A stretch of 64,000 bases of DNA from NCBI RefSeq assembly GCF_963921235.1, contig NC_086097.1:144338001-144402000 (forward strand), in the 5' to 3' direction. The notes under the pieces are model-generated. The model made no database searches and was not told the DNA's origin. It saw only the letters and a list, made by a program, of their open reading frames with translations. Source of the stretch: Mobula hypostoma. Taxonomy: Eukaryota. Both the position numbers and the translations under genes were made by a program. This document shows, piece after piece, positions 3,756-61,744 of the stretch. Each line of letters opens with the position of its first letter. Within the stretch, counting starts at the first letter, position 1.

Positions 3756-4058
3756 TTAATTTATTAGCTTTATTTATCACATGTACATCAAAACATGCAG
3801 ACTGTGTCAATTCTGTCAATGACCAGTACAGTCTGGGGATGTGCTGGGACAAGCCACAAGCATCACCATGCATTGGCACCAACGTAACATACTAACCCTT
3901 TGCTAACCTGTACGTCTTTGGAATGTGGGAGGAGACCAGAGCACCTCGAGGAAACTCATGTGGTCATGGGGAGAAAGTTAAAAACTCATTATAGGCACCG
4001 GCAGGAATTGAACCCTGATCACTGGTGCTCTAGAGCGTTAGGCTAACCGCTACTCCAC
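3756..4058 (-). mobile_element. V-SINE (tRNA-derived, HE1-like)
   Basis: Reverse-complement V-domain TTCCTCGAGGTGCTCTGGTCTCCTCCCACATTCCAAAGACGTAC and B-box-like GGGTTCAATTCC. Confidence 0.75.
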
Positions 4059-6280: not shown

Positions 6281-6944
6281 TTACATTATGAATTCCTTAC
6301 GATTTTCTAATCATTTTATATATCTAGAGTTTATGGGCTATACAGTTCCAAGTTCAAAGTTCCAAGTTCCAAGTACATTTATTATCTAAGTATGTATGCA
6401 TTATAAATCTTGAGATTCGTCTCCTTGCAGGTAGCCACAAAACAAGAAACTTAAAAGAACCCATAAAAAAGACCAACACCCAATGTGCAGAGACAAAAAA
6501 AACAAATTGTGCAAACAATATAAGTAGGCAAATAACATTCAGAACAGCAGGTACATCAATCAATAGAGATGTATACACTGCAAATATCTATTATTAGTTG
6601 AAATTACCTTAAGATATTCATTTCAACGTTGTAACCTCAAAAAAGTACTAAATTTAAAAATATTCAACTTAGAAGACCATAAAGTCATCCTTTTTCATAG
6701 GATAATACACACTCCGTATTTCTGAAATTTGCATCCAATGACCTCCAAGGAACAAAGTTTCAGTAGCAGATTTCAAAACACAGCTGCTACTGCATCATAA
6801 GTTTCTGCATAAAGGGGGATCTTTACCCCCAGTTCATTCCTTCCTAAGATCACCATAAGTAAGGACCATTACTGTGTAAAGGTTGTTTTCTCTGACTGAT
6901 CCTTTCCCCTATAAATTATGAAATTAGATTCCTAGGAACAAGTT

Positions 6945-7105
6945 ATTTGTACATTCTCCCTGTGACCTTGTGAGTTCCCCCGGGTGCTCCGTTTTCATCC
7001 ACATTCCAAAGATGTACGGGTTAGTGGGTTAATTGGTCACCAGGGTGTAACTGGCCATATGGGCTCATTACCTGGCTGTAACTCTAAATGAATAAAATAA
7101 AAAAG
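6945..7105 (+). mobile_element. V-SINE, 5'-truncated
   Basis: TTTGTACATTCTCCCTGTGACC...CCGGGTGCTCCGTTTTCATCCACATTCCAAAGATGTACGGG; A-rich tail. Confidence 0.75.
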
Positions 7106-11040: not shown

Positions 11041-11227
11041 TTTATTACACAAATAGTTGGGATACTAATTGACATGAGATGAAGTTTCAGCCTTGGAAAC
11101 TAGTGTTTCATATATACAGAATATGTAGAAAACTAGTTTTCATGTATACTGTATAGATAGACAACTAGTTTCCAAGCCTGGAACTCCATCTCATATCGAT
11201 TAGTATCTGAACTATTTGTGTAATAAA
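11041..11227. repeat. Palindromic MITE-like element with ~64-bp inverted arms
   Basis: TTTATTACACAAATAGTT...GGAAACTAGT pairs with ACTAGTTTCC...AACTATTTGTGTAATAAA with few mismatches. Confidence 0.85.
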
Positions 11228-13184: not shown

Positions 13185-13737
13185 TGTGAACAGTTTTGGG
13201 CCCCTCATCTTAGAAAAGATGTGCTGGCATTGGAGAGGGTCACAAGGATGATTCCAGGAATGAAAGGGTTATCATATGAGGATTGTTTGATGGCTCTGGG
13301 TCTGTACTCGCTGGAATTCAGAAGGATGACGGGGGAATCTTATTGAAACCTTTCGGATGTTGAAAAGCATAAACAGAGTAGACGTGGAAAGGATGTTTCC
13401 CATGATGGGAGAGTCTAGGACAAGAGGGCACAGCCTCAGGATAGAGGGGTGCCCACTCAAAACAGAGATGTGGAGAAGTTTCTTGAGCCAGAGTGTGGTG
13501 AATTTGTGGAATTTGTTGCCATATGCAGCTGCGGAGGCCAGGTTGTTGGGTGTATTTAAGGCAGAGATTGATAGGTTCTTGATTGGACATGACATCAAAG
13601 GTTACGGGGTGAAGGCCGGTAACTGGGGTTGAGGAGGAGATAGAAAAAAAGGATCAGCCATGATTAAATGGCAGAGCAGACTCGATGGGCCAGATGGCCT
13701 AATTCTGCTCCTATGTTTTATAGTCTTATGGTCTTAT
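13185..13737 (+). mobile_element. CR1 LINE 3' fragment (young subfamily)
   Basis: ORF 13357-13632 ERMFPMMGESRTRGHSLRIEG...FLSQSVVNLWNLLP; tail (TCTTATGG)n. Confidence 0.9.
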
Positions 13738-26321: not shown

Positions 26322-26820
26322 CACAAACAAGAGAAAATCTGCAGATGCTGGAAATCCAAACAACACACACAAAATGCTGGAGGAAATCAACATCTATGGA
26401 AAAGAGTACAGTCGATGTTATGGGCTGAGACCCTTCAGTAGGACTGGAGAAAAAAGATGAGGAGTCAGAGTTAGAAGGTTGGGGGTTGGGGGGGGGGAAG
26501 AGGAAGAGTCATAAGGTGATAGGTGAAACCAGGAGAGGGTGGAGGGGTGAAATTAAGAGCTGGGAAGTTTAATGGTTAAAGAGATACAGGGCTGGAGAAG
26601 GGGAATCTGATTGGAGAGGACAGAAGACTATGGAATAAAGAAAAGGGAGAGGAGCACCAGAGAGAAGTGATGGGTAGGTAAGGCGATCTGGTGAGAAAGG
26701 GAAATGGGATTAAGGAATGGTGAAGTGGGGTGGGGCAGAACCAGAAGTTAGAGAAATCGATGTTCATGCCATCAGGTTGGAGGCTACCCAATCGGAACAT
26801 AAGGTGTTGTTCCTCCAGCC
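26322..26820 (-). mobile_element. Penelope-like element 3' part (GIY-YIG C-terminus, pyrimidine tract, pLTR)
   Basis: LEEQHLMFRLGSLQPDGMNIDFSNF; decayed hammerhead motif at ~26410-26445. Confidence 0.85.
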
Positions 26821-28300
26821 AGTATAATTAATTTGCTGATTTCCATGGGAATTATCCTTTAGCTGTTTGGCCTGGACAAGCTTTGGATTTTCATGATGTT
26901 GCTTGCTGTTTTTTTTAAATTGAATGAACAATATAAAAATGTTTTGAAGTGGAATGTCAAAGATCATTGACTTTAGTTAAGGGTAGCCAGGACTTCTTAA
27001 AGGAAGAGTATTCTCTAATTATATGACAACTGGTGAGTTAACAAGATTTTAGATAGTGGTTGGAGGAGGTCGATAGGTCAACTAGTGCCTATAACGTCAC
27101 ATTGGAAATCTTGGTCTGGTAACTTGATTGGGAGGAGAATACTACTACTCAAGAACCCTCAGGAAATACCTTTGCTGCCGGTAGAAAGAATTTGTAATGA
27201 AATCTAATTATTGATGCCAAGAACTTACAAACGTTTGTAGTTCCCAGTACATCACTGCAACTTGGAAAAAAAAAAGATTTTGATCTTGTCTGAGTGGTAA
27301 CAATACGTACCTTACTCTCTTACTCAAAATATCCTTCTGTTCACAGGGTTAAAGCGATTATGATAAGGATCACAAAACTTCTATTGCATTGAGGAATAAC
27401 AGGAATGATACAGGTGAAGTGGGGATATTTTGCTCTATTGGAGCTTTGACTGATGGTCAATAAAGTATCAATCTTTTTGTTCCTCTTGTTGCCACCCAGT
27501 AAATACATTTCCTTCATGACTGTAGCTGTCATACAAACACAACATTAAATTGAAAGAGTGAAAAACCAATTTAAAAGGCTTTTGATGTCATTTTCCAGTA
27601 AGTTGCCTGGAACCTAATGTCTAGTTATACCATAGTTAGCACAAGTAGTTATATAGTTGGTGTAAAATTAATTATTGTAGACTGCTGCCAGGGTGGCAGC
27701 CACCATACAGAGAACAGAACCTCCTTCTGTTGACAAAGATACATGGAGATGTGGCTGAAACCCTTGGAGAAGTTTAGGTGAAATCTAGCACTTTCTTAGC
27801 ATCATTGCTTTTTGAGTATATTAGGATGTCCTGGAAAGGACATAAACAATACTTTTTAAATACATTTATTATTTTATTTAAGAAGTGTGTCACAGGTCAG
27901 TTGTTCCATACCAAAAGCAAGCCATGTGGCAAGTTTATTTGTTAAGGGCTATAATTGTAAAGCAGATAAAATTGCTTGCTGCAACACCAGACCAAGTCAC
28001 ACGGAAGTGTTATGTGCATTTCTGGACCCAATGTTACAAGACTCTTGAGAGAGGGAAAAGGGTAAATAAGGCTTCAGAAGCATGGTATTAGATCTACAAG
28101 TTTGTATGAAAACATAAACATGGGAATCTTTTACATCTTTAAAAGTGAGGACTGAGGAGTAAACCATTTGAAGATATTGAAATTGATCAATTTTAATAAA
28201 TAAAACATGTAGCTCTATCTGAGCACAGTTTAATAGTACAAAATCTTCTCAGTATCTGGAATCTTCAGTTAGAAATCAGCCTAGGCACACATTTAACCAG

Positions 28301-28774
28301 AGTAACACACGCAAAATACTGGAGAAACTCAGCAGGTCAGGCAACATCTATGGAGAAAAATAAAGAGTCATATCCTTACCCATTCTCATCTCCTCATCTG
28401 CCTAATACCCTGCTCTGGTGTCACTCCTCTTTCCCTTTCTATCATGATCCACTCTCCTCTCCTGTCAGATTCCTTCTTCAGCCCCTTACCTTTTCCACCT
28501 GTCACCTCCTACCTTCTCACTTCAACCCCTCCTCCCCACCCACCTACCTTCCCCCTTACCTGGCTTTATTACCATCTACCAACTTGTACTCCTTTCCCTA
28601 CCCCCACCTTCTTATTCTGGTTTCCTTCCTCTTCCTTTCCAGTCCTAATGAAGGATCTTGGCCCAAAACATTGACTCCTTATTCCTCTCCATTGATGTTA
28701 CCTGGCTTGCTGAATTACTTCAGCATTGCACGTGTTACTCTGGATTTCCAACGTCTGCAGAATGTCTTGTGTTT
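28301..28774 (+). mobile_element. Penelope-like pLTR with inverted 5' segment
   Basis: 28301-28370 is the reverse complement of the 3' pLTR; flanked by ACACATTTAACCAG / ACACAGTTAACCAG (28287-28300, 28775-28788). Confidence 0.8.
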
Positions 28775-30687
28775 ACACAGTTAACCAGCAAGCTCAAAAG
28801 AGCAAATTGAAAACTACTGTAGTTCCTCAGCACTGACAAGAATGACTTACAACATATATGGAGTAGTTTGCATTGCACTTCAAATCAGGAAGATGAAAAG
28901 CCAGGAACAGAGGGAGGGTAACTGAAATTGGTTTAGAAGTGGGTGACATATGGGGCTTGGATGTTGTCAACGTAGCAGAGATAATGCAGCCGAAAGGTCG
29001 AGGCAGACAAGGGATACGGTGCTGGAGAGGATGTCAGGTATAGATGATGTAGGGTACTAAAATATATGATTCAAATTTGCAATGCATGTGCATGCGCGCC
29101 ACATAATTAGAATTGAACAAGTTGCACATGATCTAGCAGCTCTTCTTGTCTCTTCATGTTTCACTGTATATTCTGCAATGCTCTGGTTTGATGTGAGGAA
29201 TGCATGTTCACAAATCATACATTAGCAATATTAGCTGATCTACAAAAATATGCAAATTCTTTGAATCTGTTGATGAGAGTGAATAGATATTTCATGGGGG
29301 GAGTCTGGAAGCATTTGACATCTTGCATTAAGTTCAGCCATGCAGTTTGGTGTAATTCCATTGCAAACATTGTGTTCAGGGAAACATTAATAATCAGATA
29401 AGATGCCCAGGAAAATAGTAACTGAACACATAATGGAGACACAAAAGATTCTGAAGATGCTAAAAATCTTCAGCAAATGAAAGGTCTTGTCCCAAACCAT
29501 CGGCTGTTTATTTCCCTCCATAAATGCTACTGGACCTGCTGAGTTCCTAAAGCAGTTTGTGTGTGTTATTTAATACTGGATACTACTTTAACAAAAACCA
29601 CATTGTATGAAGGGATTAAGAAATAAATATAATGGCTGCTTCAACGCAAGGTGTTGGAGGGTTGATACATTAATCTTTCACTTCACATGTGGAATGCATA
29701 ACAGTGGAGAGATGATGTTGTATGTTTGCATTGGGCTATTGAAGCATCAGAAAGCTAACTGGAATAAAAATACTGTAGAAAATATTGGGAATGCTTGTTG
29801 GGTCAGGCAACATCTGTGGAAAGAGAGATACTTAATATTTCAGCTATGGGATCTTTGGTCAAAACTGAGAAAAATAGTTAATTTACACTGGCGGATGAAG
29901 CCAGGAAGGATGGTTAGAACAAAGGGACTATCTCTGAAAGGAGGAGCTGAAACAAGTTAATGAGGGCATTCACAAGCATATGGTACTTCACTGTGAGTGT
30001 ATTTTATTGTCAGCTTTCCCTGCAAGGTAGACCATATGGATAGGTTGGGAAAAACTGATCCTAATAACCCCTACCATTTGGACACACTAAATTAAAAAAA
30101 AAGGGATTTATACGCAATGTAGGCAGGAGCCAAAGTTTTTACCAATCCACATCTTTCACATGCTTATTCCAATAGATTGTGGATTATGTGACTGAGAAAT
30201 ATTTGGTATAAGGGTCTTGTTCTAGAAATTATGTTATAGTGTGAAATCATCAAGATCTTCCAAACTATCAGGACAAGGTACAACAAGGAATAGGTGGACA
30301 GGGGCATTTCTTGAATATTAAAAGACATGTTCAAGCAACAACATAAACACAACTTAAAGCCCAAAAGAAGCACGTGTTCATCCATACAGAAAGAAATAGC
30401 TTATCTTGAGATAGAAGTAGGTGCAAATAGATTACAACCAAACAGTGGAAAAATGGAAGCAATTGTGATGTCAAGGAAATCTGTAAGTACCGCAGAGCTC
30501 AATTCATTCTTAAGCAGGGTATTGCACTATGTGAGATGTCCTGGAACTTGAACCTGTTCTGCCTGCACTATATTAGCTGGAATGAAAGACAAAATTAGTA
30601 CTGGGGCAAAAAATTGCCAGTTAATTAATTTATTTAAGAAGAGCCTGACAGTTGAGTTTTTGTTGGTACACTTTGATAAAGTACATA

Positions 30688-31376
30688 TAGTGGATTCAAT
30701 TAATTGGGTGATTGGTTAATCAGGGCAGCCAATTATTAGAGACCCCTCTTAAAGAACAAAACTTAATTGAGAAAATTGCCCGGATTCCCTTTGTTTATTT
30801 GGCACACTGTGCCAGTTAGTTGGGAATGCAATGAAGGCAGTTCATTATCTGCACTAGGTGTCTGAGCTGATATTGTTCATTTACAGTCAATCAAAAGAAC
30901 AGCAGCAATGAATTATTCTATCGACAACTATTAGAAGCTAATACTGGAACTGAGCCAGCCAGTGGCGTAGTGGCATCCACACCGGACTTTGAGGTGAGAG
31001 GTCCCAGGTTCGAATCCGGCCGGCTCCTTGCACGCTTTCCATCTGTGCTGAGATGAGTGCTGAGCTAGGCAACTCAACCTTGTAAAACAAAAACAGACAA
31101 GTGCTAAAGAGATGGCCTGGTTGCCAGCCAATGTGCCACAAAACACATAGTGGAACAACAACAACTCCGCAGTTTTATAACACTGTGATAGTAATGACCG
31201 TGCTCTAATTTGTTCTGTGTTTCATTTAAATGCACAATTTGTTACCCAGATAAATGATAGTTTGTCTCTGTTATGCCTTTCAACTATTTCCATAAAACTT
31301 TGGCTAATTGGGCTTGCGTCTTAATTGGGCCAAGATGTACTGGTTCTGATGTGTCCCAATTAACCACAGTCCACCG
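30688..31376. mobile_element. Tigger/pogo-like non-autonomous element
   Basis: TA-flanked TIRs TAGTGGATTCAATTAATTGGG / CCCAATTAACCACAGTCCACCG; homologous in inverted orientation to 60966-61744. Confidence 0.75.
30952..31165 (+). mobile_element. tRNA-derived SINE with (AAC)n tail
   Basis: A-box TGGCGTAGTGG (30963), B-box GGTTCGAATCC (31007), closing stem GAGCCAGCC/GGCCGGCTC, non-tRNA body, AACAACAAC tail. Confidence 0.8.
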
Positions 31377-31574
31377 TATATTCATACTTGTGTGAGACAC
31401 TTCACGTTATGGATCAGGAGCTGTTATCTATCCTACAATGAAGGGTACTCAACATAGAGGATGGAACAATATAACACAGGAACATGTTCATCAGCCACAA
31501 TGTAGCAATAAACTATTTAAACTAGTCACTAGTAGCTAAATGTCACTTTTGGGGTGCCATCAAAAAAGGTGACT

Positions 31575-31748
31575 CCTATGACAGATTAGGAAAGAGGTAC
31601 AAAAGTCAGAAGGCACACAATCAATGACTCAGGAACAACTTCTTCCCCTCTGCCATCTGATTTCTGAATGGACAATGAACCCATGAACACTACCTCAGTA
31701 CTTTCTTATTTCTGTTTTTGCACTACTTATTTAATTCAACTATTTTTT

Positions 31749-31788
<40 letters not shown>

Positions 31789-31920
31789 GCTATAATTCAG
31801 TTTTGTTTTCTATATTATCATGTATTGCATTGTACCGTTGCTGCAAAGTTAACAAGTTTCACGATGTATGCCGAAGCTATTAAACCTGATTCTAATTCTG
31901 ATTCACGTTCTGATTCTGAA
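31575..31920 (+). mobile_element. Rex/Babar-type LINE 3' end
   Basis: GGAAAGAGGTACAAAAGTC...CTCAGGAACAACTTCTTCCCCTCTGCCATC (RNNFFPSAI); tail (TTCTGA)n. Confidence 0.75.
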
Positions 31921-31946: not shown

Positions 31947-32861
31947 CAGTTCTGTACAAAAGCACATATATGTAGTGAGGGTGCCTAAGACTTTTGCACA
32001 GTACTGTACTTGTTAATGTGGAGCGGAGTGCAAATTTGTAAATCCGGCAGGAGCAAAGGATGTTGGGAATGGTGAGGCTGGAGTGCCACGGAGGGGCGTA
32101 GGACAGGTGCAGAGAAGGAATGCCAGAGGATGAGGGGTGGTTGGGTGCAGACACACCCAGCCTTGAGACTCAAGCCTAGGTCAGTGGATTCCAAATTATT
32201 GATCATTACAGAATGTCTCTCTGGTGCTTCCTCCTCCCTTCCCTCACTCTTTCCTTTTCCCAACCATGATTCCCCACTCCCTGTCCCCTTCTATTCTCTG
32301 TCCACAACAGAGCCATAAGACCATACATCATAGGAGCAGAATTAGGCTGTTTGGCCCATCGAGTCTGCTCCGCCATTCAATCATGACTGATCCTTTTTTT
32401 CCCTCCTCAGCCCCACTCCCTGGCTTTCTCCCTTTAACCCTTGATGCCGTGTCCAATCAAAAACCTATCAAGCTCTACCTTAAATACACCCGACGACCTG
32501 GCCTCCACAACTGCCTGTGGTAACAAATTCCACAAATTGACCATATATCAGATTCAGGTTTATCAGGACTCACATATGTTATGAAGTTTGTGTTTTTTTT
32601 TGTGGCAGCAGTACAGTGAAATACATAAAATTACTCCAGTATGGTGCAAAGGTCTTAGGTGCCCTAACTACAGTATATATACAGTACTCCACAACCTCCT
32701 GCCCTGGCACTCTTTCTCTGCCACCTGTCCCATGGCACTCCACGTTCACCATTCCCAACATCCTTTGCTCCTGCCAGATTTACAAATTCACTCCATGTTG
32801 ACAAGTACTGTACTGGGCAGAAGTCACAGGCACTCTAGCTATATATATGTGCACAGGACTG
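31947..32861. mobile_element. Composite bounded by Tc1-like TIR modules with ~170-bp inverted arms
   Basis: 31947-32130 is the reverse complement of ~32700-32861; CAGTACTGTGCAAAAGTCTTAGGCAC-like modules; interior holds a CR1 3' end (32315-32542, minus) and a Rex-type tail. Confidence 0.65.
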
Positions 32862-34254
32862 TAATTTCCATATCCCTCCATTTTCTGCACATTTATTTGT
32901 CTGTCTAAGAACCTCTTAAGTGATTCTATCATATTTGCCTCCTCTGCTACCACGAAGAACATTCCAGGCACCCAACACTCTCCGTGTAAAAGACTTGCTC
33001 CGCACATCTCCTTTGGAAAATATAATTGCATCGTATCATGAGCATTGCTAAAGAGTGAGGGAACGTACGCACAAGTTGTGAAAGTGGCATTAAAAATTGT
33101 CTTTGGAAGTAAAAGGTTTCAATAATTCCTATTGGGAAGACTATAAGTCCTTACTGGCAATTCTTTGTCCTAAGTTGGCAAAGCCAACAACAATACATTG
33201 TGCTGATGAAGGATCTCAGCCTGAAACATTGACTGTTTACCCTTTTCCATAGCCTGCTGAGTTCCTCCAGCATTTTGTGCGTGCTGCAATAATACATTAA
33301 AAGTAGAAGGATGAACACATCTCTTATCTCAAATACGGAATTGAATTTAGAAGTTCAAACCAAAATGCTACTGCAGATTCAAGGTCAAGATTACTATAGT
33401 GAAAGCAAGTGTGACATTGCTACATGACATACAGTATTTGTTTATATTTGCTTGTTTGTCTAACTGTGGGCAGCTAGAAAAGATTCTCAAACAGGCACCT
33501 TTTTGAGCACTCTTGTCTGTTCCACGTTTCTCATTGCACATTCTGCATGTCACTGCATTCGTCATTAGTAATGTAGTAATGAAGATGCTGAATACACCAT
33601 GTGCAGATGTAAAACAAGGCCTGCAGAGTTCTGACAAGTGCTAGAGAAATGGAAGGAGGGACAGGATACAGAATAGACTGAGATTATTGTCACTGGAATG
33701 TAGAAGATAATATACAGTATATAAGAGTAGCTTGGACCCAGTTCAGGTTGTACTGTGAGCCCTATGTTTATGATCAATCATATGAGCCTTTTCGTTTGTA
33801 CGAGGAATGGAGGGAGATATATTTCAGGGCAAGCAATATTCTTGAAATTGAAGGTGAAGATGTAATTATACTTGCTTAAAATACAGTGATACAACAGCAC
33901 AAGAAGCAATTTAATGATTAGAGATTGGTATCAATGAAGATGTCTTCCAAAAGCACAGAGCAGCAAAGGCAGAAGCTGCAAAACCCAGCTCAGGCGATGT
34001 GAGATTGATGGGAAAGGTTGCTAACAACGTAATCAGATCATCCACAATAGGTGTACCATTGAATTTAAGGATGTTTATAACAGAAAACAACAAATGAGGG
34101 ACTTCAGATTCCCGGAAAGCTAAGGACAGGTAAGGAGGACATTTGGCCCATCAGTCCATAACTTACCTTAAAAAAGTCTTATCCAACCTTCCAGCACTTA
34201 AACAAGGTAGCGTCAGTGCTTCATGTGGGGTAAGTAGCTTAAAACTGAGGTGCA

Positions 34255-36349: not shown

Positions 36350-38830
36350 TGTACTTCATTCAAGGAACCTGCAGATGGCAGTGTTCCAAGTCCTCCATGA
36401 CTTTGTTTTCCCTGACAGTGGAGTCCATGGATTTGGGGAAATTCTGGCTGAATAAATGAGGTAACTAACTGCAGTGCTTTATGTATAATGGCACACCCCA
36501 CAGCCAGCGTGTCACTGGTGGTGCAGGGGGACGGATTTTTAAGATGGCAGTCAGTTGGGCTGCTTGTCTTGAACAATGTTGAACTGCACTCATGTGTGAT
36601 GTGCCTAGCTTGTACTTTGTAGATGATGGAAAGCTTTTGGGGTGACAGCAGATGTCACTTGCTTCAGGATACCTAACCTCTGTTCTTTTCTTATTGTCAC
36701 AGTACTTATATGGCTGTTCTTGCTAAATTTTTAAAAATCCATTCTAACCTCTAATATGTTGATGGTGGGAAAACAGCAATGGTAATGTTACCAAATGTTA
36801 AGGGTCACTCCATTGAAGTTTTGTTGTTAGAGATTGTCATTGCCTGGCAAGTTTGCAATACAAGTGTCACTTCTACTCACCTGTTCATCAGTGAATGTTA
36901 CTTGGGTTCATGCGAGCACGTACTATTTCATTTGCTGGGGAGTGGCAAATAGAATTCCCTATTGTAGAACCATCAGTGAACATCCCCATTTCTAACCTTA
37001 GTAATGAAGGAAGATCATTGAAACAACCGGCGATGGTTAGGCTTAGGACACTGTCTTGCAGTGACATCCTAGGGCTGAAGGCTTGTTTTCTAAAAATCAC
37101 AATCGGCTTCTTTTGTGAAAACTATGACTCCACTTCAATCAGCCAACTACTAATAAAATCCAAAACTGGGCATATGTGAGTGGATCATTGTTGAGAGAAT
37201 CTTTCAATTGCATTGTCAAAGACACCTTCCATCACAATGTGGTAACTGAGAGTATTGCGATTGCAGTCAGAATGAACTTGTCCTGTTTTTCCCGAGTATG
37301 ACATGCCTGGGCAATTTTCCTTGTCATTAGCTAGATGCAACTGTACTGGGTAAGAATAAGTCCGGGATTTCACATATTTTTTATTCAACAGGCAAGCCCC
37401 ATGTTATGGCCATTCATATAACGGAAATTTATTCTTACTGAATTCACATAAAATACAGAATAAAACTCGCTCTCACGGAATTTATGTGAAGTAGATAAAT
37501 AAACACAAAATCTACTTTTTATCCAACTCTTATTTTTGAGCACATGCAGATGATGTGCTATTGTTTTATGGAAAATTGCCATACTTTCCAGTGCCAAAAT
37601 AACATGCCCACAACTCACGAGCCCTCTCTGTATGCTTTTGGAATGCGGGTGGAAAACGAAGCACCTAGTGGAACTCCACACCGTCATGTTCAGCAAAAGG
37701 TGTTCGCTGGCACTATAAAGTGATCGTGTTATTCACTACGCTACCGTGCCACTTGGTGGTAAATATCACTTGTGGGAGATGCTTGAGTTGGCTTTGGTTA
37801 ATAAATGTAATGCATTTTGTAGATGGTACACACTGCCACCACCACACGCTGGTGATGTAGGGAATGAACACTTTGCCTGGTGAACCAGTAACAATTAAAC
37901 TTTACCTTGGATGGTGCCGCACTTCTTCAGAGTGGTTGGAACTGCATTCATTGAAGCATGCAGAAATTATTTGAGTGCATGCTTGACTTGTGCTTTGTAG
38001 TGGTGAAAAGTTCCTTGGTGTAAGTTGGTGAGTCACTTATGCAGGATTCCTGGGGCTTTTGACCCAATTTTGTAGCCTGTGTTTCTTTGGCTAGTTCTGT
38101 TGAGAGGTTGGTGAGGTGTCCCCCAAGATCTGGATAATGCAGGGCTCAGGGATGATAATACATTTGAACATTAAGAGCAGGTGCTTAGATTTTATGTTTT
38201 TCGCATGGCACTCAACATATTTGGGCCTAGGACAATGCCCTAAGGAACTCCTGCAGTGATGTCCTTGAGCTGGGTTATAGACCTCCAAAAATACAGCCAC
38301 CATCCATTTGCTCAAGGTTGGACTTCAGCCACTGAGGTGCTTTACTCATAAAGCCATTGACTTCCGTTTTGCCTGGATGCTTTGTTGTCACATCCAGTCA
38401 AAGGTTACCTTGACGTCAGTGGCAGTCAGTCTCAGCACACCTCTTGAACTTCATATTTGCCAAATGCTGGGATGAAGTTTGAAGCTGAGTGGTCCTTGTG
38501 AAACCCAAACTGGGCACCGTTGAATGAGTTATTGATGAGTGAATGCCACTGCCAGAGATATAGATGACAGCTTCCACCACATAGCTGGTGATTGAAAGCA
38601 GAATGATATGGCTGGATTTACTCCTTGTGAAAACAGGCTAAACCTAGACAATTTCTGGCATTGTTAGGTAGATACCATTTTAACCTGCTCTGTAAAAGGT
38701 TCACGCAAGGTACAGCTTGTTATGGAGTGCAGATTTTCAAGACTGCATCTGGGTTGATGTCTGGTCCAGAGCACTCAGTTATTTCATGATACCATGTTGA
38801 CTGAAGTAAATTGCTGAAGACTAGCTTCTA
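36350..38830 (-). mobile_element. Decayed CR1/L2-type LINE RT fragments (at least two pieces, V-SINE remnant at ~37610-37750)
   Basis: FNDLPSLLRLEMGMFTDGST (cf. NDLPS...MFADD) in ORF 36888-37100; DITAGVP*GIVLGP on the minus strand near 38225-38265. Confidence 0.6.
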
Positions 38831-41169: not shown

Positions 41170-42388
41170 TGATTTTTTTTCTCAGTTCCTCCAACTCCAG
41201 TGCATCTGTTCTCAAGATGAGACTGCATTACCAAACATGAGATGTCTTCTTTTTTCAAAGATTGGGATTTGCATTCCTCTTCGTCATTGATGCCCTCTTC
41301 CACATCTTCTCCAATTCCCTGACATTCACCCTCACCCCATCCTCTCTCTGCCATAATAGGAATAGGGTTTCCTTGTCCTTACCTACCACTCCACAAGCCT
41401 TTGCACCCAGCACTCCATTCTCTGTAACTTCTGCTATCTACAGTGGGATCCTACCTTCTCATCACTCCCTGCTTTCTGCACGGATCACTCTCTATGTGAC
41501 TCCCTTGTCCTGTCATTTCTCCACACAGATCTCCCTCCTGGCAGTTACCCTCAAGTGGGACAAGTGCTACCCTTGCCCCTACACCACCATCCTCACCATC
41601 GTTCAGGACCCAAACAATCCTTCCAGGTGAGACAATACTTCATTTGCTAATCAGTCAATGTCATCTAGTGTATCTGGTGCCCCTGGTGCGGCTTCCTCTA
41701 TATCAGGAGGACCTGACGTAGATCGGGGGTCGAGCTCATCCAGTACCTTTACTCAACCTGTCAAAAAAGGGAGGATTTGCTGATGGCCACCCGCTTCAAT
41801 TTCACTCTCATTCCTATTTGGACGTTGATCCATGGCCTCCTCTACGGTCATGATGAAGCCACGTTGCGGCTGGAGGAGCAACACCTCATATTCCAAATGG
41901 GTAATTTCCAACATGATGGCATGAACGTTAATTTCGCTAACTTCCAGTAATTTCTTGTCTCCTCCCCTTCTCTCTTTTTCCATTCCCCATTTTGACTCAC
42001 CCCTTTTCTTCTCCTCATTGCTGATCACCTCCCATTAGTACCTTTCCTCTTTCCTTTTCTCCCATAGTCCACTGTCCTCTCCTTCTTCAGCCTTTTATCT
42101 CTTCCACCCATAACTTCCCAGTTTCTTACTTCATCACTCCTCCCCCATCCACCTTCTCCCTCACCTGGTTCTATCTATCACCTGCCAGCTTGTACTCCTT
42201 CCCTCCCCGAACCACCAACCTTCTTATTTTGGCCTCTTCACCTTTCCTTCCAGCTCTGATGAAGTGTCTTGGCCTGAAATGTTGACTGTTTATTCCTCTC
42301 CATAGATTCTGCCTCACCTGCTGAGTTCCACTCACAATTTGTGTGTGTTGTTCTGAATTTCCAGCATTTGCAGAATCTCCTGTGTTTA
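41170..42388 (+). mobile_element. Penelope-like element, 5'-truncated and decayed (RT end, GIY-YIG, pLTR)
   Basis: FSQFLQLQCICSQDE; VI*CIWCPWCGFLYIRRT (GIY-YIG); LEEQHLIFQMGNFQHDGMNVNF; hammerhead motif CTGATGA...GAAATGTT at 42256-42283. Confidence 0.9.
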
Positions 42389-50335: not shown

Positions 50336-50626
50336 TGTCTTGGAGCACTGTGGTTCCACCGAGGCCTGGGAGTGAAGAGGCACCTCTCTTCTTTTGGCCT
50401 TTGACTTCAGATTAGTCTTCAAAAAACTGGTATGAGTAATGTAAAAGCTACCAAGTAACACCTCCCTCCATCTAATATTCTCAAAATGAATCAAAATCAA
50501 ACTTGAAATGAGATAATAAACCCTTTTAGTAGTTTGGGAGGGGGCATCCTTACACTTGCAGGATGATGACGATGGGGTGGGACTGTCGTGTAGTGGGGGC
50601 AGCACGATAGTGTAATGGTTAGCACA

Positions 50627-50897
50627 CAAACACGAGGAATACTGCAGATGCTGGAAATTCAAGCAACACACATCAAGGTTGCTGGTGAACGCAGCAGGCC
50701 AGGCAGCATCTCTAGGAAGAGGTGCAGTCGACGTTTCAGGCCGAGACCCTTCGTCAGGACTAACTGAAGAAAGAGTTAGTAAGAGATTTCTTCCTAGCTC
50801 TTTCTTCAGTCAGTCCTAATGAAGGGTCTCGGCCTGAAACGTCGACTCTACCTCTTCCTAGAGATGCTGCCTGGCCTGCTGCATTCACTAGCAACTT
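50627..50897. mobile_element. Penelope-derived inverted pLTR pair (hairpin)
   Basis: Arms ~50671-50784 and ~50789-50902; 14-bp TSD TAATGGTTAGCACA at 50613-50626 and 50898-50911. Confidence 0.9.
50726..50761 (-). ncRNA. Minimal type I hammerhead ribozyme motif (intact core)
   Basis: Minus strand reads AGUC-CUGACGA-AGGGUCUCGGCCU-GAAA-CG-UC-GACU: stem I AGUC/GACU, core CUGANGA/GAAA, stem II AGG/CCU, palindromic ACGU stem III, GUC cleavage triplet. Confidence 0.8.
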
Positions 50898-53014
50898 TAA
50901 TGGTTAGCACAACGCTTTACAGTACCAGCGGCCCAGGTTCACTTCCCACTGCTGCCTGTAATGAGTTTGTACATTCTCCCCATGACTGCATGGGTTTCCT
51001 CCAGGTGCTCCAGCTTCCTCCCACAGTCCAAAGACGTACCGGTTATTAGGTTAATTGGACGTTGTAAATTGTCCCGTGATTAGGCCAGGACTAAATTGGG
51101 GGATTTCTGGGCAATGTGGCTGGAAGGTCCAAAAGGACGTAGTCCGCACTGTATCTCAATAAATAAATAAATAGTTTAAGCTGTAAGAATGACACAGTGG
51201 CATATATATATATAAAAAAGAAATTACAGGTGCTGGAAATCTGAAATAAGTACAGAAAATGTTGGAATCACTCAGCAAGTGAAGCAGCTTCTATGGAATG
51301 AGAAAAACGGCTAATGTTTCAATTCTGAGACATTTCATCAGAAGGGTGGATATTGGGTCCAGCTGCAAATAAACAATGATCCCTTTAACTAGTGAAGGTT
51401 GGTGAGGGAATGGCCTTCAAGCTGCTAAATGTTGGCTCCATTGTACGGCTCCGCAGGAATGCACTGACAGCCATCTGGCAGGTCTGTAGACAGCTGTCAG
51501 ATAGATGCAGAGTGCATCGTAACCTGCTCCTATTTTCCACACCTCCTCATTGCAGCAAGAAGTTGGACGTGCAGTGGAGGTCAAACACATGATCACTAGC
51601 TCTGCCCTGAACCTAATATTGAGCTGTAGAGATATACAGCATAGAAACAGACTTCTGCTTACCATGCGTATGCAGAATATTGAATACCTACTGTAGCTAT
51701 GCTAATTCCACTTACCAGCATTTGGTTATTAGCTTTCTCTACCATGGCCATTCAGATGCCTGTCTAAATAATTTTCCAATGTTGAGAGGGTTGCTGCCTT
51801 CACCCCCTTCTCAGTCAGTGCATTCCAGATCCAGGTTCCCTCTGTGTAGGAGAATGTTCCATCAGGTAACCTGAAATCTCCTGTGAAATCATTCTATCAA
51901 GAGTGAACAGTCTGATCAATGTTTCATTCTCACGTATGAATGCAATAATTACACTTTCTGCACATCATTCCAAAGACATTTATTCAGTAAATGATTAAGC
52001 TGCAGGGCAAGGCTTGTGGCAGATCTGACCATTCAGCTTAATGTCATCCACAGCTGGCACATCTGATCCAGTCATTCAATCACTCCAATGGGGCTCCTGA
52101 CTCTTATGAAAAGAACTTTTATTGCTTATCTTTATTTAAGTGTATACGTAAGATCTTTTTATTCGCTATAATTTAGTTCCTTCCTTCCTGTTTCTAAATG
52201 TCCTTGACCATCAGAGACACAGGAAACAGTGTGAAGGCCTTCTAGGAGAAGGATTCTTGAAGCTCTGAGGACAGACTGGGGGCGTCCTGCAGCCGAGTTG
52301 CCACTCAGGGCTACTCACCTTGCAGACGGAACACAGCAACACTGTTACCAGCTCCTTCGGGGCGCAGAACGCTTAGGCTTAGCTTGACTGCAGGGCTACC
52401 TCGCGGCATACTCTGCTCTGGGACCAGCAGGGTTTGACCCAGGATATGGGAATAATGTTAAATGCAACGACAGCTGAGTCATATCTCAAGCTGCCTCCTC
52501 CACATACTCACGGTGTTCACACATTGGCACCATTCCAGCGCAGGAACTGATGCAGACACAGGCACAACTGATGCTACTTTAAATTTAACTTGGCACCTTT
52601 AGCAGGCAAACAGCAGGCTTCAATGAGCCGAGCTTTGCTGCTACACACACATTGTATAACTGAACACTCTCATGCATTTCCACAGAAGTATTTAGAAAAG
52701 AGCATGTACATAAACATGCAGTCAGTCACATACAGTATACTGTACTCATGCTGTATGTGTTTTTGTGTATCTACACATATGCTTACATATGATATCAGTA
52801 TTGGTGTTATTACACAAGTGAATACACATTTCAGCCCAGCCCTGTCCACCCACACTCCTAGCCTTTCAGACCACTTCTCTGCATGTGCAGCACTAAATCT
52901 GGGTGCACACAGTGATTCCTAGTGCAGAGCAGGGTATTTTACCTCACAGTCACTCAGAGCAAAGATCCTATAGACCCAATAATTTTCAAAAATTACAGCA
53001 GTTTTTGCCATTTT

Positions 53015-53374
53015 TAAACACCAAGTCTACCCCAATTAGAATTATAAACCCCAAAACGGCCTCAATTAGAATTATAGACTTCAAGTTGCCACAATCAGAA
53101 TTATAAACATGTCTGCCCCAATCAGAATTATAAACCCCATGTCTACCCTAATTAGAAATATAAACCCCGTGTCTACCCTAATTAGAATTATAAACCCCAA
53201 AGCTGCCCCAATTAGAATTATAAACCCCATGTCTGCCCCAATTAGAATTATAAACCCCAACTCTACCCTAATTAGAATTAAAACCCCCAAACCTGCCCCA
53301 ATTAGAACTATAAACACCACATCTGTCCCAATGAGAATTCTAAACCCCCTGCCTGCTCCAGTTAGCATTATAAA
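53015..53374. repeat. 30-bp minisatellite, about 12 units
   Basis: Unit ~TAAACCCCATGTCTGCCCCAATTAGAATTA; one further unit at 54452-54483. Confidence 0.95.
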
Positions 53375-54455
53375 GCAGCAGCTGATTGGCAGGAAGCAAA
53401 GAGTAGGGGTAAAGGGAGCCTCTTCTGGTGGGCTGCCGGTGACTAATGGCATTCCACAGGGGTCTGTGTAGGGGCCAATTCTTTTTATATTATATGTCAA
53501 TGATTTGGATGATGGAATTGATGGCTTTGTTGCAAAGTCTGCAGACAATATGAAGATAGGTGGAGGGGTAGGTAGTATTGAGGAAGTAGAGCGGCTGCAG
53601 AAGGACTTAGACATATTAGGAGAATGGACAAAGAAATGGCAGATGGAATACCGTGTCGGGAAATGTATGATCATGCTCTTTGGTAGAAGAAATGAAAGGG
53701 TTGACCATTTTCTACATAGAGAATAAATATACAAAAAACATACAGAAGTGCAAAGGGACCCAGGAGCCCTTGTGCTGATTCCCTAAAGGTTAGTTTGCAG
53801 GTTGAGTTTGTGGTGAGAAAGGCAAATGCAATGTCTGCGTTTATTTCAAGAGGGCTAGAATATAAAAGTAAGGGTGTAACGTTGAGACTTTATAAAGTGC
53901 TGGTGAGGTGCCACTTGGAGTATTGTGAGCAGTTTTTGGCCCCTTATCTTAGAAAGGATGTGTCGAAACTGGGGAGGGTTCAAAGGAGATTCATGAAAAT
54001 GATTCCAGGATTGAACGGCTTGTCATATGAAGAATATTTGATGGCTCTGGGCCTGTATTCACTGGAATTCAGAAGAATGAGGGGTGACCTCATTGAAACC
54101 TACCTCATTGAGACCTTGATAGAGTCGATATTTCCTATAGTGGGAGAGTCTAAGGAGTCTAAGACCAGAGGATGCAGTCTCAGAATAGAGGGGTGACCTC
54201 TTAGAGTGGAGTTGAGGAGGAATTTCTTTAGCCAGAGAGTGGTGAATCAGTGGAATTCTTTGCCACAGGCAGCTGTGGAGGCCACGTCTGTGGAGGCAGA
54301 GGTTGATAGATTGTTGATGGTCAAGGCATGAAGGGATTCGGGGAGAAGGCAGGAGATTGGGGCTGAGAGGAAAATTGGATCAGACGTGATGAAATGGCGG
54401 AGCAGACCCAATGGGCTAAATGACTAAATGCTGTTCCTATATCTTATGGTCTTAT
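53375..54455 (+). mobile_element. CR1 LINE, 5'-truncated RT pseudogene
   Basis: VTNGIPQGSV*GP; DDGIDGFVAKSADNMKIGG (FADD mutated to SADN); LYKVLVRCHLEYCEQF; tail TCTTATGGTCTTAT. Confidence 0.92.
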
Positions 54456-56345: not shown

Positions 56346-56885
56346 TCAGAATCAGAATCGGGTTTAATATCATCCGCATGTGTCGTGAAATTTGTTAACT
56401 TACCAGCAGCAGTTCAATGCAATACATAATACAGAATCTATCAATCAATCAATCAATCGATTATAGTATATGTACTTCGAATAGATTAAAAATTGTGCAA
56501 AACCAGAAACAATATATATTTAAAAAGTGAGGGTTCAAAGTCTATTTAGGAATCGGATGTCAGAGGGGAAGAAGCTGTTCCTGAATCGCTGAGTGTGTGC
56601 CTTCAGGCTCTGTACCTCCTACATGATGGTAACAGAGAGAAAATGGCATGCCCTGGGTGCTGGTGGCCCTTAATAATGGACGCTGACTTTCTGACACACC
56701 ACTCCTTGAAGATGTCCTGGGTATTTGTTAGCTAGTAGCCAAGATGGAGTCGACTAAATTTACGACCCTCTGCATCTTCTTTCAGTCCTGTGCAGTAGCA
56801 CCCCCTGCCTCCATACCAGACAGTGATGCAGCCTGTCAGAATGCTTTCCATGATACATCTATATAAGTCTTTGAGTGTTTTTGCT
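56346..56885 (-). mobile_element. Rex/Babar-type LINE 3' fragment
   Basis: TLKDLYRCIMESILTGCITVWYG in ORF 56732-57043; (TCAGAA)n tail on the plus strand. Confidence 0.85.
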
Positions 56886-56909
56886 GTCAAATTTAGCTGC
56901 CATTTTTTC

Positions 56910-57075
56910 CCAGCTTCAGGATGTTGAAATCCTTCTGCAAGCAATGCTGTACTTTTGAAGTGACGTAACTGCTGTATTGCAGGAAATGCATCAGGCCACT
57001 TGTGCAATGATGCTGTTTGAGGTATAAATATTGGCCAAGACACCTGCGTTGATCTTCAAAGTAGTGTAATGAACG
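56910..57075 (-). mobile_element. DeuSINE-like fragment
   Basis: GTACTTTTGAAGTG...GAGGTATAAATATTGGCCAAGACACC is the reverse complement of a Deu-domain motif; similar piece at ~48935-49115. Confidence 0.55.
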
Positions 57076-57860
57076 CTTGGAGGTTTTTGTTTTCCATTTA
57101 AAATGAAACCCTAACTTTTCAGCTCAGAGGAAGGAATGGCAGTGACAGAAGAGTGAGAGGCAGGGTGGAAGCATGGGACCTCACTGCTTTGAACCATAGT
57201 GCCGGATAAGTTGAGAGACAGAACACCTGCAATTTGCTCAGAGAATGGCTTCGTGTCCGTTTAACCCCATGCAGAACCTGACCCAGCATAACATTCCCAT
57301 CAGGCACATCACTTCCCATTCACACTCAATATGTCGACTGTAGCATCCAGAAAAAACATCCCTTGATGTATAATCCTGCTCCAAGGATAACATTCTCCCC
57401 AGTTAGCCTGTTCCATAGTTCCAGTACACTCAATGGAGTCAATCCATGGCTTGAAGTCAGTTAAAGTCAGCAGCAGGCTGTCAGCTGACAGGCTTTCAGC
57501 ACATTAACACCTTCCAGATAAGTGTCAGCTTGGCTCTCTTCAAACACTTCCAACTCAGAGTCAGAAGGTCTTAAAAGGTGGATTTAGGACATCTTGGTGA
57601 GGAAAAGTAGAACAAAGGAGCAGGATCTTAAAATCAGAGCTGGGTCCATCGAGGACACTTTCTTTTACAGAAGCGATGGAGAACCTGGAAGGCCTCGGAT
57701 GCTCAGCTCATTGGTATCTCATGGTAGTTAAGTCATAGAGTAATGACATAGTTAGATAGGTGGAGCTACAGTACATAGAGACATCAGAGGCTCGAGGTCT
57801 GCGGGTCCGTGAGTCCAATGGAGACTGGAAGCCTGGGGCGGCCTGTCCTGGGGTTGGAGG

Positions 57861-58816
57861 TGTCACGGCCCCGTCCGTGAAGTCCGCATTCCGGTTCATG
57901 GTCCAGTCCATGGATTCCACACTCCGATTATTCTGTTTTTCCCTTGATCTGTTAGGTGCCTTAATTGAGGCACCTGATTCTCATTTCGGGCTGGCAACAT
58001 AAATAGCTCTGGGGTCCAGTGATTCCTTGCTGGACCATCCTCGTCAGTAACCTCGTCAGAATCCCCGTCAAGTTAACCCGCCGGAGTGAGACTAGAGCCG
58101 CTCTCTCCAGTTCCTGGGCAGCATCGAGGGCTTGCCGCTACTTGGAGCCTTTTCGTGTCAGGATAAAGAACAGTCTATCATTCTGTGGTTTTGTCTCTCC
58201 ATGTTCTCTCCTCCGCTGGGAAGGTCCAGCCATTTGCCGCTACCCTGAGTGGGGAACTTTCTCAGTGTTCTGTGTCCTGTGTCTAAGAAGAGTCTTGTCT
58301 CTATATCCTGTGTCCAAGGAGGAGCCTCGGCTCAGTGTTTCATGTCCTGTGTCTAAGAAGAGTCCCAGCTCTATGTCCTGTGTCCAAGGAGGAGCCCCGG
58401 CTCAGTGTTCTGTGTCCTGTGTCTAAGTCAAGTCTGTTCCAAGTCCAAGTCAAGAGTCGGTCCAAGTCCAAGTCCAAGTCAAGAGTCAAGTTCCAAGTCC
58501 AAGTCAAGTGTCGTCCAAGCCAAGTCCGAGTCTAGTCCAAGCCATGTCTGAGTTCTAGTCAAGAGCCAAGTCTAGACCCAGGTACCGAGTCCCTGCCAAG
58601 ACCCGAGTTTCAAGTCATGACCTGAGTTCCCTGTCAAGTTTAAGTCCCAAGTCCAAGTCCAGGTTTTCCAGTTTGTCACTCTACGTCTAACTCCGTGTTA
58701 TCATTTTCTCCTCACTCCTTGGCTTACCTAGCATTCTTAATAAACATTGTCCAATTCCTAGTACTTCAGTGTCTGTGTCTTGCAATTGGGTCAGCTACCA
58801 TCGCAACCTTGCAACA
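57861..58816 (+). mobile_element. Solo LTR (Gypsy-type), 956 bp
   Basis: Starts TGTCACGG and ends TTGCAACA; 5-bp TSD GGAGG (57856-57860, 58817-58821); AATAAA at 58739. Confidence 0.85.
58261..58660. repeat. 70-bp tandem repeat (~2.4 units) followed by degenerate (CCAAGT)n within the LTR
   Basis: Units start at 58261, 58331 and 58401; CAAGTC hexamers at ~58425-58660. Confidence 0.9.
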
Positions 58817-60965
58817 GGAGGACTGTCTGTGTGTGTGAGTGAGTGGCTGGCTGGATGGGACGGAAGAAAAGGGGCTTGTATTACTGTCGATGTTTTGTTG
58901 TTTTGTTGCGCTTCTTCTACTGAACGTTGTGGGTGTGCTCTGCTGGCGAGGTGACACTTGCGGTCCCCAGCACAATACAAACAACCTGTTTTACTGTAAG
59001 TTTCGATGCACGTGTGATGAATAAGTGAATCTGAATTTTCATCATGATCAAATTCAACGGAAGAACAGGCTCAGGGAGCTGGAATGTATCATCACATTCC
59101 AGTACTACCTGCTTAAACCTTTCATAGGTATATATGTCATTGACACTACCAGACAGAGCTTTATTATGAAGTCAAATAGACTAGGTGCATACTCCAAAAC
59201 AAGGAAGACCATATACGAGTTTTATAGAGTATTAAAGCTTACAGTCAGTTTATGGATTAGGCAGTGGCCATGTACAAAAGTTGGACACAATATATTGTAT
59301 CTCGTAAATATCTGAACAAGACGGAAGTAGTGTGAGTTTGGTGTGGAGGGTCCAGATATTATTGCATATTATAGGAAATAACAAGCCGTGTTATGGAGAA
59401 CAGTAGACTCTGTTTGTATTCAAGGAAATGGTAGAATCTGAATATTGATGTTAGCTGATCTTAGTGTTTATTCTAGGATCGGATCACAGTAGACCCATGA
59501 TTTTCTACATGCTTCAGCAGTCCTTATGTATATGGAGAGATAGTGTAATCAAAGTCTGAGTTTTAAACCAATTTTCCAGGAATGTTTAGATGTTTCTTGT
59601 CTAAGCATTAAACTGAGTTGTTACAAATATGAAAAAGTGGTAATATATGTTATAACTCACAAATTTTAAGATTTTTGGGACAACATTTTATGACTCAGTG
59701 TTAAATAAGCAAGCATTAGCAGGTCATCTTCCCTGAGACAGTGTGAAAAATAGAAAAAGCTTTCCTCTCAATATGTGTGGTCACTTTGATAAGGTTTCAT
59801 GTCCTGCATGGTTGACAAGGGATTTCAGCACTTGTGATTTGTTGAGAAAGGAGGTTCTGTTTCGATATTCAGGGTTTGCTGTGAAATAATTGCTTATTTC
59901 TCCAGGGGAGAAGTTGTACTTAGTGATGCCATCTAATCCTAGCTTCATTTTAAAGATTTTTAGAATTGTTATGATATAGTTTAACATGTATATGATATTT
60001 GAATTTTTTAATGAAAAGTAGGTTTGAATCGGTAAAGAGTTACGTTGAGTGGATACAAAGCTGACATTGATAAAGCATTTGTTCATGAAGCATTAATGTA
60101 GACAATTTTTTAGTGTTATCAGTAAATAATGAAAATGCAGAACAATCAGGAGAACAGCAGGTTCAACATATATAAAGTAAAATAGAATAACTTATGCTTC
60201 ATATAGTACAGAGAATAATTGATCCTGAATTGAATGCATATAATATAAAATGCACAATCTATTATCCTATGTAACAGAAACCCCTCTGTACATTAAGGAA
60301 AATATCAAGCCATTTATGTTAGACAGAATTGCAATTCTCATATTGTACAGAATAGAAGACCTAGTAAACAATATATAATAGTCAAATTTAACAAGATAGT
60401 AGGATATGGCAGATATTGTTTGTATTTTAGTGAACAGCAGAAGCAGCCTATTCTGTTGGAAGTAGCAGACCCAGTATATTTTACAGGGAACAGAGATCTT
60501 GTATCTTGTATGGAAATAGTTTCTCCTACTTCATATAATTGCAGGAATCACAATATGGAGAATAACATCCCCTATATTTGTTGTAGGAAACAGGAAACCT
60601 TATTAATGTAATATATAATTAGCAAATCTTGTGTATATTACAGAAGAGCAGGGCTCGTGTATACAGGAAATAGAATCTACATTAATTATGGCAAAAAATC
60701 TGAGTGTGTATACAGTATTTAACTGAAACATCATAAAGACGTAGTGTCGTAGAGCACGAATATAGTCTCCTGACCCACCATATCCATGCAGTCCATTGAG
60801 TATCGTCAGACCTTTAGTCACATCTGTCAATACCCATTTTCCAACTGGCGTCACTTCTTACCACTCAGGTGGAAGAAAGTTGCCAGGTATTTCCATTCGC
60901 TGACTCATTAAAATGCAAAATCCATCCTAGATCTCCTGGAATAGGTGGTTCGGTACATTGTAATA

Positions 60966-61744
60966 CAGTGGATTCTGGTTAATTGGGACACATCATGACC
61001 AGTACAATTCGCCCCAATTATGCATTAAACTATCATTTAACTGAGTAACAAGTAATGTATTTAAATGAAATACAGAACAAATTAGGACAATCAATACTAC
61101 TCCAGTACTATAAAAACCTGTATTAGTTCCTAACAGTTATCGATGGAGGAATTCATCCAGTGTATGCTGCCATGCTCTTTGTAAATGAACAAAATCAGTG
61201 CTGACGTCCAACGGAGATAACAGACGGCCTTCATACAATACTATTGACAATTGTATCCTACAGATCTTCATTTTCATTGTAACATTCAAGATGACTGTCT
61301 GTACCTACAAATTCTTTGTAGGGCCTAACTTGTTGAAGTAGTGAAATCATTTAATTTTCACTCCCAGCCATTTCTGGCATCTCCAAACCTGAACGTTTGA
61401 AATGACAGCAAGCAAAGCAGTTCTGAATTGTCTTACTGCTTATTTCTCACCAACAATCAGTGACAAAGATACTCTTTTTAAACACAAGTCTATATAACTA
61501 ATGCTATTTAAAAAGTGTTCTCTCTAAGCACAGTGTAGTGTCTAATGGCCACACAAGTGCACGTGACTAAAGCTTGTTAGAAACTGTTCGGCAACAGCCT
61601 ACTTTCCCAATCAAAGCAGCATAGTTTCCCAAATAAACGAAGGGAATACAAGCTATTTTCTTGATTTGTTTGTGTTCTTTAAGATTTGTCCCAGATAAGT
61701 GGCAGCTCTGATTAATCGATTGCCCAATTAACCTGAATCCATGT
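60966..61744. mobile_element. Tigger/pogo-like non-autonomous element
   Basis: TA-CAGTGGATTCTGGTTAATTGGG ... CCCAATTAACCTGAATCCA. Confidence 0.8.

Follow-up and report, generated by a model that had tools for sequence, protein, structure and literature searches.

Among metazoans, Penelope-like elements are known to carry minimal hammerhead ribozymes (min-HHRs) in their pLTRs; the fish elements Xena, Poseidon, and Neptune are examples (Cervera and De la Pena 2014, PMC4209133). They are described there as inactive as monomers and as having low activity as dimers. The sequence-only reading of the locus considered below had stated that Penelope-like elements carry minimal type I hammerheads in their pLTRs, and this agrees with that paper. 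The Poseidon element PAc of Anolis is another close system. It cleaves and extends both strands of its target, and its reverse transcription has two start sites, one at each boundary of the tail (Frangieh et al. 2024, PMC11167929). The PAc hammerhead is protein-assisted and was dispensable for insertion in vitro, and the same study reports no reads ending at the cut.

Insertions of EN+ Penelope-like elements can be recognised by an adjacent inverted 5'-truncated pLTR copy, a tail of 30-40 bp, a target-site duplication (TSD), and a palindrome at the junction (PMC3846280, PMC8557442). A CX2-5CxxC linker before the endonuclease is found in Neptune and is shared with Nematis; according to PMC8557442, it is absent from Penelope and Poseidon. 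Non-LTR retrozymes are derived from Penelope end repeats and have been reported in one chondrichthyan (bioRxiv 10.64898/2026.07.22.740005).

The stretch of Mobula hypostoma DNA that was analysed, referred to as the window, is 64 kb long. It contains a motif of this type, 36 nt in length and read on the minus strand from 50761 to 50726 (Table 1). The sequence-only reading had spelled out this motif and stated that all conserved nucleotides are present, that stem I closes, and that stem III is the loopless palindrome ACGU. These statements hold. The invariant core (CUGANGA, GAAA, UH) is present in all 11 of its nucleotides, stem I closes with four of four pairs, and stem III reads A15.1-C-G-U16.1. 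The cut had been placed between 50730 and 50729, and C17 does fall at 50730. The preferred reading of stem II is a bulged A followed by G10.1.U11.1, G-C, and G-C, with a loop of 6 nt. A G10.1-C11.1 pair is a usual, not an invariant, feature of min-HHRs, and here it is replaced by G.U. A G.U at 10.1-11.1 would be expected to carry an activity penalty. The core had also been called intact, which is correct for the 11 invariant nucleotides and not for stem II, where the pair that was probably ancestral has been lost. The available part of PMC544870 gives no rates for G.U at 10.1-11.1.

A search with a type I hammerhead descriptor, as the earlier reading had suggested, was run on both strands of the window. 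There were two matches, the loopless 50726-50761 and a looser one at 33199-33241, and the former is the only loopless match in the 64 kb. Among 100 dinucleotide shuffles, the mean per window was 0.11 for descriptor matches of any kind and 0.01 for loopless matches, with a loopless match present in 1 of the 100. Rfam found nothing over the window that reached the gathering score. At the locus, a search to E=10 returned 12 weak matches with no hammerhead family among them. These were mostly miRNA precursors far below the gathering score and were discarded as reflecting only the shape of a hairpin.

Table 1. Coordinates of the features of the insertion and of related copies in the window.
Feature	Position	Strand	Remarks
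Minimal type I hammerhead motif	50726..50761	-	Stem I 4 bp, core CUGACGA, bulged A, 3-bp stem II, GAAA, loopless ACGU, C17
Predicted cleavage site, 3' of C17 (50730)	50729..50730	-	Hammerhead numbering applied to the sequence
TSD, left copy, 14 bp	50613..50626	+	
TSD, right copy	50898..50911	+	14/14 identical
Direct arm, 5'-truncated pLTR end of a Penelope-like element, with 3' tail	50627..50784	-	Starts 27 nt upstream of C3
Tail, about 44 nt	50627..50670	-	Confined to the direct arm
Inverted arm, second copy, head-to-head, without tail	50789..50897	+	
Second hammerhead copy	50812..50847	+	In the inverted arm; G5A core change at 50818
Near-perfect palindrome, 12 bp	50781..50792		One mismatch; at the arm junction
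Second head-to-head insertion of the family	28301..28774		Tail on direct arm only; 14-bp duplication with 1 mismatch, 28287-28300 and 28775-28788
Decayed C-terminal GIY-YIG endonuclease frame, same family	41600..41950	+	Linker remnant upstream to about 41370
Second copy with last endonuclease codons (about 26750-26830), 3' UTR, hammerhead (copy at 26441), and tail	26325..26830	-	

The context of the motif was overlooked in the sequence-only reading. The motif lies inside a hairpin-shaped two-armed insertion of 271 bp (50627-50897), which is head-to-head and is flanked by identical 14-bp target-site duplications. The inverted arm, read from 50789 to 50897, starts at the same point of the repeat as the direct arm. 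The two arms differ at 11 positions in 114 nt, and nine of these differences are transitions. The insertion contains no coding sequence. Its inverted 5'-truncated copy, one-sided tail, and TSD are those of an EN+ Penelope-like insertion. It interrupts an older interspersed repeat, presumably SINE-like. Two paralogues of this repeat, at about 3893-4050 and 37628-37722, look like the site before insertion. A further paralogue of the repeat interrupted around 50613-50911 was seen at 6944-7052. A host gene was also looked for; no Pfam match was found in the 145 of 248 stop-to-stop frames (at least 62 aa) scanned in the window, nor in 11 chosen frames.

The Penelope origin that had been proposed for the repeat is borne out by two sister copies. 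In these two, out of about 20 family copies, the sequence upstream reaches the terminal part of a GIY-YIG frame. In one of them, the frame at 41600-41950 is joined through a 3' UTR of about 300 nt to a hammerhead copy with C3 at 42256. A near-length homologue search found nothing. A longer-length search gave a Mobula protein (57% identity, E 9.9e-33) and two Hypanus proteins, so that the closest relatives of the frame are in rays. Pfam identifies GIY-YIG in two of these three close relatives, below the curated cut-off. A wider search produced 229 relatives. Seven further relatives were scanned, and all seven have GIY-YIG (E<0.05) and five also have RVT_1. Pfam gave no match for the decayed 41600-41950 frame itself, and the GIY-YIG assignment upstream of the repeat, at 41600-41950 and at about 26750-26830, is made via homologues. 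The truncated window copies examined do not contain a reverse transcriptase. A CX4CxxC linker is present in all three close relatives (P0001-P0003) and is decayed in the window copy. Such a linker favours a place in Neptune or Nematis over one in Penelope or Poseidon. As judged from sequence, the parent element is likely a Neptune-type Penelope-like retrotransposon.

The repeat family is abundant, as had been claimed. An iterated profile search identified 20 family copies in the 64 kb, and a profile of the region 3' of the ribozyme recovered the same 20. The copy described here is 61-76% identical in its direct arm to the other copies. With 75-76% identity to the two copies that carry the frame, it is a member of a sister subfamily, and the frame of that subfamily is not among the window copies seen. 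One or more older subfamilies of this end module, with greater divergence, are represented at 9667, 12017, 20217, 29845, 40405, 44122, 51341, 4118, and 8194. There are also tail-less short copies that start within about 7 nt of the 5' edge of the ribozyme (38854, 33199, 3248, and 29470). Candidate duplications of 8-13 nt occur at the short copies 38860 and 33203. Exact-repeat searches for TSDs on single copies were mostly unconvincing (5-8 nt). The downstream family motif had no matches in metagenome contigs and none in viral contigs. Among 24 sequencing runs listed for words of the family, seven had half or more of the words; all were contigs, with no RNA set among those listed, and they are uninformative on expression.

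The decay of the ribozyme was followed in an alignment of the 10 copies that span all of it and are closest to the present copy. The other 10, which are older or lack the 5' part, were excluded. The majority sequence of the alignment has a complete core, an extra A between 9 and 10.1, and a palindromic 15.2-16.2. This extra A, a feature of min-HHRs, is found in 10 of 10 copies. The dinucleotide at 11.1/12 is TG in six copies, CA in four, and CG in none. The observed/expected ratio of CpG in the window is 0.26, and TG and CA without CG in such a window is the pattern of CpG decay. It appears that the ancestral pair was G10.1-C11.1 and that the G.U of the present copy is derived. The loopless descriptor is satisfied by only one of the 20 family copies. 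All 11 core nucleotides are kept in three of the 10 aligned copies, and stem I and the palindrome are kept along with them only in the present one. Nucleotide G5 is A in four of the 10 (50816, 26441, 28645, and 29474); it is not at an obvious CpG, and with n=10 this is probably chance.

Rates of change can indicate whether the core has been maintained. Across the 10 copies, there are changes at 13/100 non-CpG core positions, 9/80 loop and other positions, 17/100 stem positions, 92/472 positions of the downstream flank, and 28/80 CpG sites. By Fisher's test, the core does not differ significantly from loop and other positions (p 0.82) or from the downstream flank (p 0.15). Its rate of 0.13 is slightly, non-significantly, below the 0.195 of the downstream flank, a trend toward conservation. 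No compensatory change was found, with none of seven pairs changed on both sides in these 10 decayed copies; covariation is expected between active subfamilies. In the covariation test on the same copies, all 500 shuffles reached the observed pairing. The sequence-only reading had listed a lack of selective core conservation and of stem covariation, together with a lack of cleavage, as what would refute its proposal; neither such conservation nor covariation was seen in this small sample of 10. These results fit a core that would decay neutrally after insertion, at the low power that 10 copies give.

Folding predictions were made for the two arms together and separately. The two-armed fold has a predicted energy of -218.3 kcal/mol (z -23.8), and in read-through RNA of either strand the pairs of the hammerhead stems have a probability of 0.0. 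The sense arm alone forms stem I with a probability of 0.006 and stem II with 0.14. The isolated 36-mer prefers a fold that pairs G5-G8 with the cut-site strand. As a dimer, the double hammerhead reaches -6.7 kcal/mol vs -28.3 kcal/mol for the best dimer fold, in nearest-neighbour energies that omit tertiary contacts of the core and any help from protein. The only close partner of the present hammerhead is on the opposite strand and carries G5A. The same-strand neighbour at 51341 was considered as a dimer partner in cis and was rejected, as it has no stem I and no ACGU. It had been proposed that the family seeds potential self-cleaving RNA motifs across the genome. That it seeds working ribozymes is unsupported for the present copy and window, with one of 20 copies loopless, neither selective conservation of the core nor covariation in 10 copies, no usable same-strand dimer partner, and predicted burial in a hairpin. 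The models suggest that the ribozyme is hidden by its mirror-image arm, and the copy is likely an inactive leftover. Against this, it retains the 11 invariant nucleotides, the GUC, and stem I.

The locus is best explained, with high confidence, as a minimal hammerhead of a Penelope-like (likely Neptune-type) end repeat that sits in a short two-armed insertion, where it is predicted to be trapped in a long hairpin and is likely inactive and decaying neutrally. Going by what has been published for related elements, the reverse transcriptase/endonuclease of the element would make a nick in each target strand, 14 bp apart. It would copy no more than the final 110-160 nt of the element RNA, beginning at two internal start sites close to each other, one of which includes the tail and one of which does not. 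A tail on one arm only would be explained by two reverse transcription start sites that bound the tail, as in the anole element. The head-to-head join of the two short products at the palindrome would arise either through fold-back self-priming or when two cDNAs anneal there. These two routes predict an identical product here and are not separable. In the parent element, the hammerhead may cut weakly, as a dimer through ACGU, probably with help from an element protein. In read-through RNA of either strand, the antisense arm would be made first and is predicted to pair with the ribozyme before it can fold.

Other readings were also considered. It is unlikely that the parent hammerhead cuts in living cells and that, in some two-armed insertions, one arm is copied from the cut RNA. 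If so, ribozyme activity in vivo would be recorded in the breakpoints of this very abundant ray-type family. The hint comes from the second head-to-head insertion, in which the inverted arm at 28370 begins at the equivalent of position 17, within 1 nt of the predicted cut; this is one of two inverted arms in the window and cannot carry the claim. The present unit starts 27 nt upstream of C3, and the four short copies start near the 5' edge of the ribozyme.

Only a small chance is given to the present copy being a working ribozyme, whose transcript, arising from within the junction or freed from the hairpin, dimerises in trans with those of other copies, with cleavage at 50730. In its favour, the copy has every invariant nucleotide and the ACGU palindrome, partners in trans could exist in so abundant a family, and minimal hammerheads do show low cleavage as dimers (PMC4209133). 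However, the sense arm alone seldom forms stem I, the 36-mer favours a fold that pairs its core with the cut-site strand, and G10.1-C11.1 has not been kept. In addition, the anole motif needed the protein of its element, and no RNA-seq reads ended at its cut (PMC11167929).

It is very unlikely that the hairpin itself is the active feature, with read-through giving dsRNA of about 110 bp as a substrate for editing, or for dicing into small RNAs that target the family. The fold is very stable, and there is a second inverted pair at 28301-28774. However, the scan of 145 of 248 frames showed no host gene, insertion is expected to leave inverted arms as a by-product, and the Rfam miRNA matches were to hairpin shape only. 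A chance match to a short descriptor, suggested by a motif of only 36 nt that Rfam does not recognise, is refuted as next to impossible by the shuffles (0.01 expected per window) and by the 10-copy majority, in which the core is complete and, like the bulged base and the palindrome, stands where a Penelope end repeat should carry it.

A number of other repeats are present in the window. A 30-bp tandem array (52962-53407) lies within a decayed LINE-like reverse transcriptase region (53400-54300) that we take to be CR1/L2-like, and related pieces occur near 13235-13730 and 32313-32543. An 83-bp inverted repeat at 11041-11227 (84% complementary, 21-nt spacer) is MITE-like and unrelated to the hammerhead family. 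Several long dispersed inverted matches at 30700-31901 and 56346-61731 are probably decayed pieces of DNA transposons. Direct repeats of 70 bp and 35 bp (58261-58435) adjoin a GC-richer segment, 57950-58200, which has the look of a retroelement fragment and no Pfam match.

The motif is real, correctly read, of an already-known type, and located in an ordinary dead-on-arrival insertion that probably silences it. Penelope hammerheads cut weakly, one of them depended on protein, and cutting was unneeded for insertion in vitro. The present copy alone adds nothing on their role in vivo. It does indicate that the structure of its own insertion can disable a hammerhead even when the core is complete, so that counts of motifs overstate working ribozymes. 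With a family this abundant, genome-wide statistics of breakpoints would be a cheap test of cleavage in vivo. A literature search for this family in cartilaginous fish found no publication that names it, which is no proof that it is unpublished; the supplements of PMC4209133 or of the bioRxiv preprint may list chondrichthyan motifs.

The motif can be compared with the min-HHRs in the available sections of PMC4209133. Like these, it is type I, with a short stem I, no loop 3, a palindromic 15.2-16.2, and an extra base between 9 and 10.1. The family copies are likewise mostly single, dispersed, and in truncated elements, with some close pairs on opposite strands. Stem II differs from that of the Schistosoma min-HHR (7-8 bp), having 3 bp and a loop of 6 nt. 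The present copy also has G.U where those min-HHRs have G10.1-C11.1, and the sections used here name no cartilaginous fish. In comparison with non-LTR retrozymes, the insertion is similarly hammerhead-bearing, non-coding, and of Penelope end-repeat origin (bioRxiv 10.64898/2026.07.22.740005). Unlike retrozymes, which form head-to-tail tandem arrays, it is a single head-to-head unit. Assignment to this class was rejected, as the family copies are dispersed or head-to-head, with no head-to-tail array.

The family resembles PAc of Anolis in having a hammerhead near the end of the repeat and 3' ends that fall into two classes, separated by about 40 nt (PMC11167929). It differs in its Neptune/Nematis linker zinc finger. 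The closest likeness in structure is to EN+ Penelope-like units, which share the head-to-head arms, the junction palindrome, the tail at one end only, and the TSD (PMC3846280, PMC8557442). Unlike the rotifer examples described there, with a TSD of 8-10 bp, the insertion in Mobula hypostoma has a TSD of 14 bp, a tail of about 44 nt, and a unit of only 271 bp.
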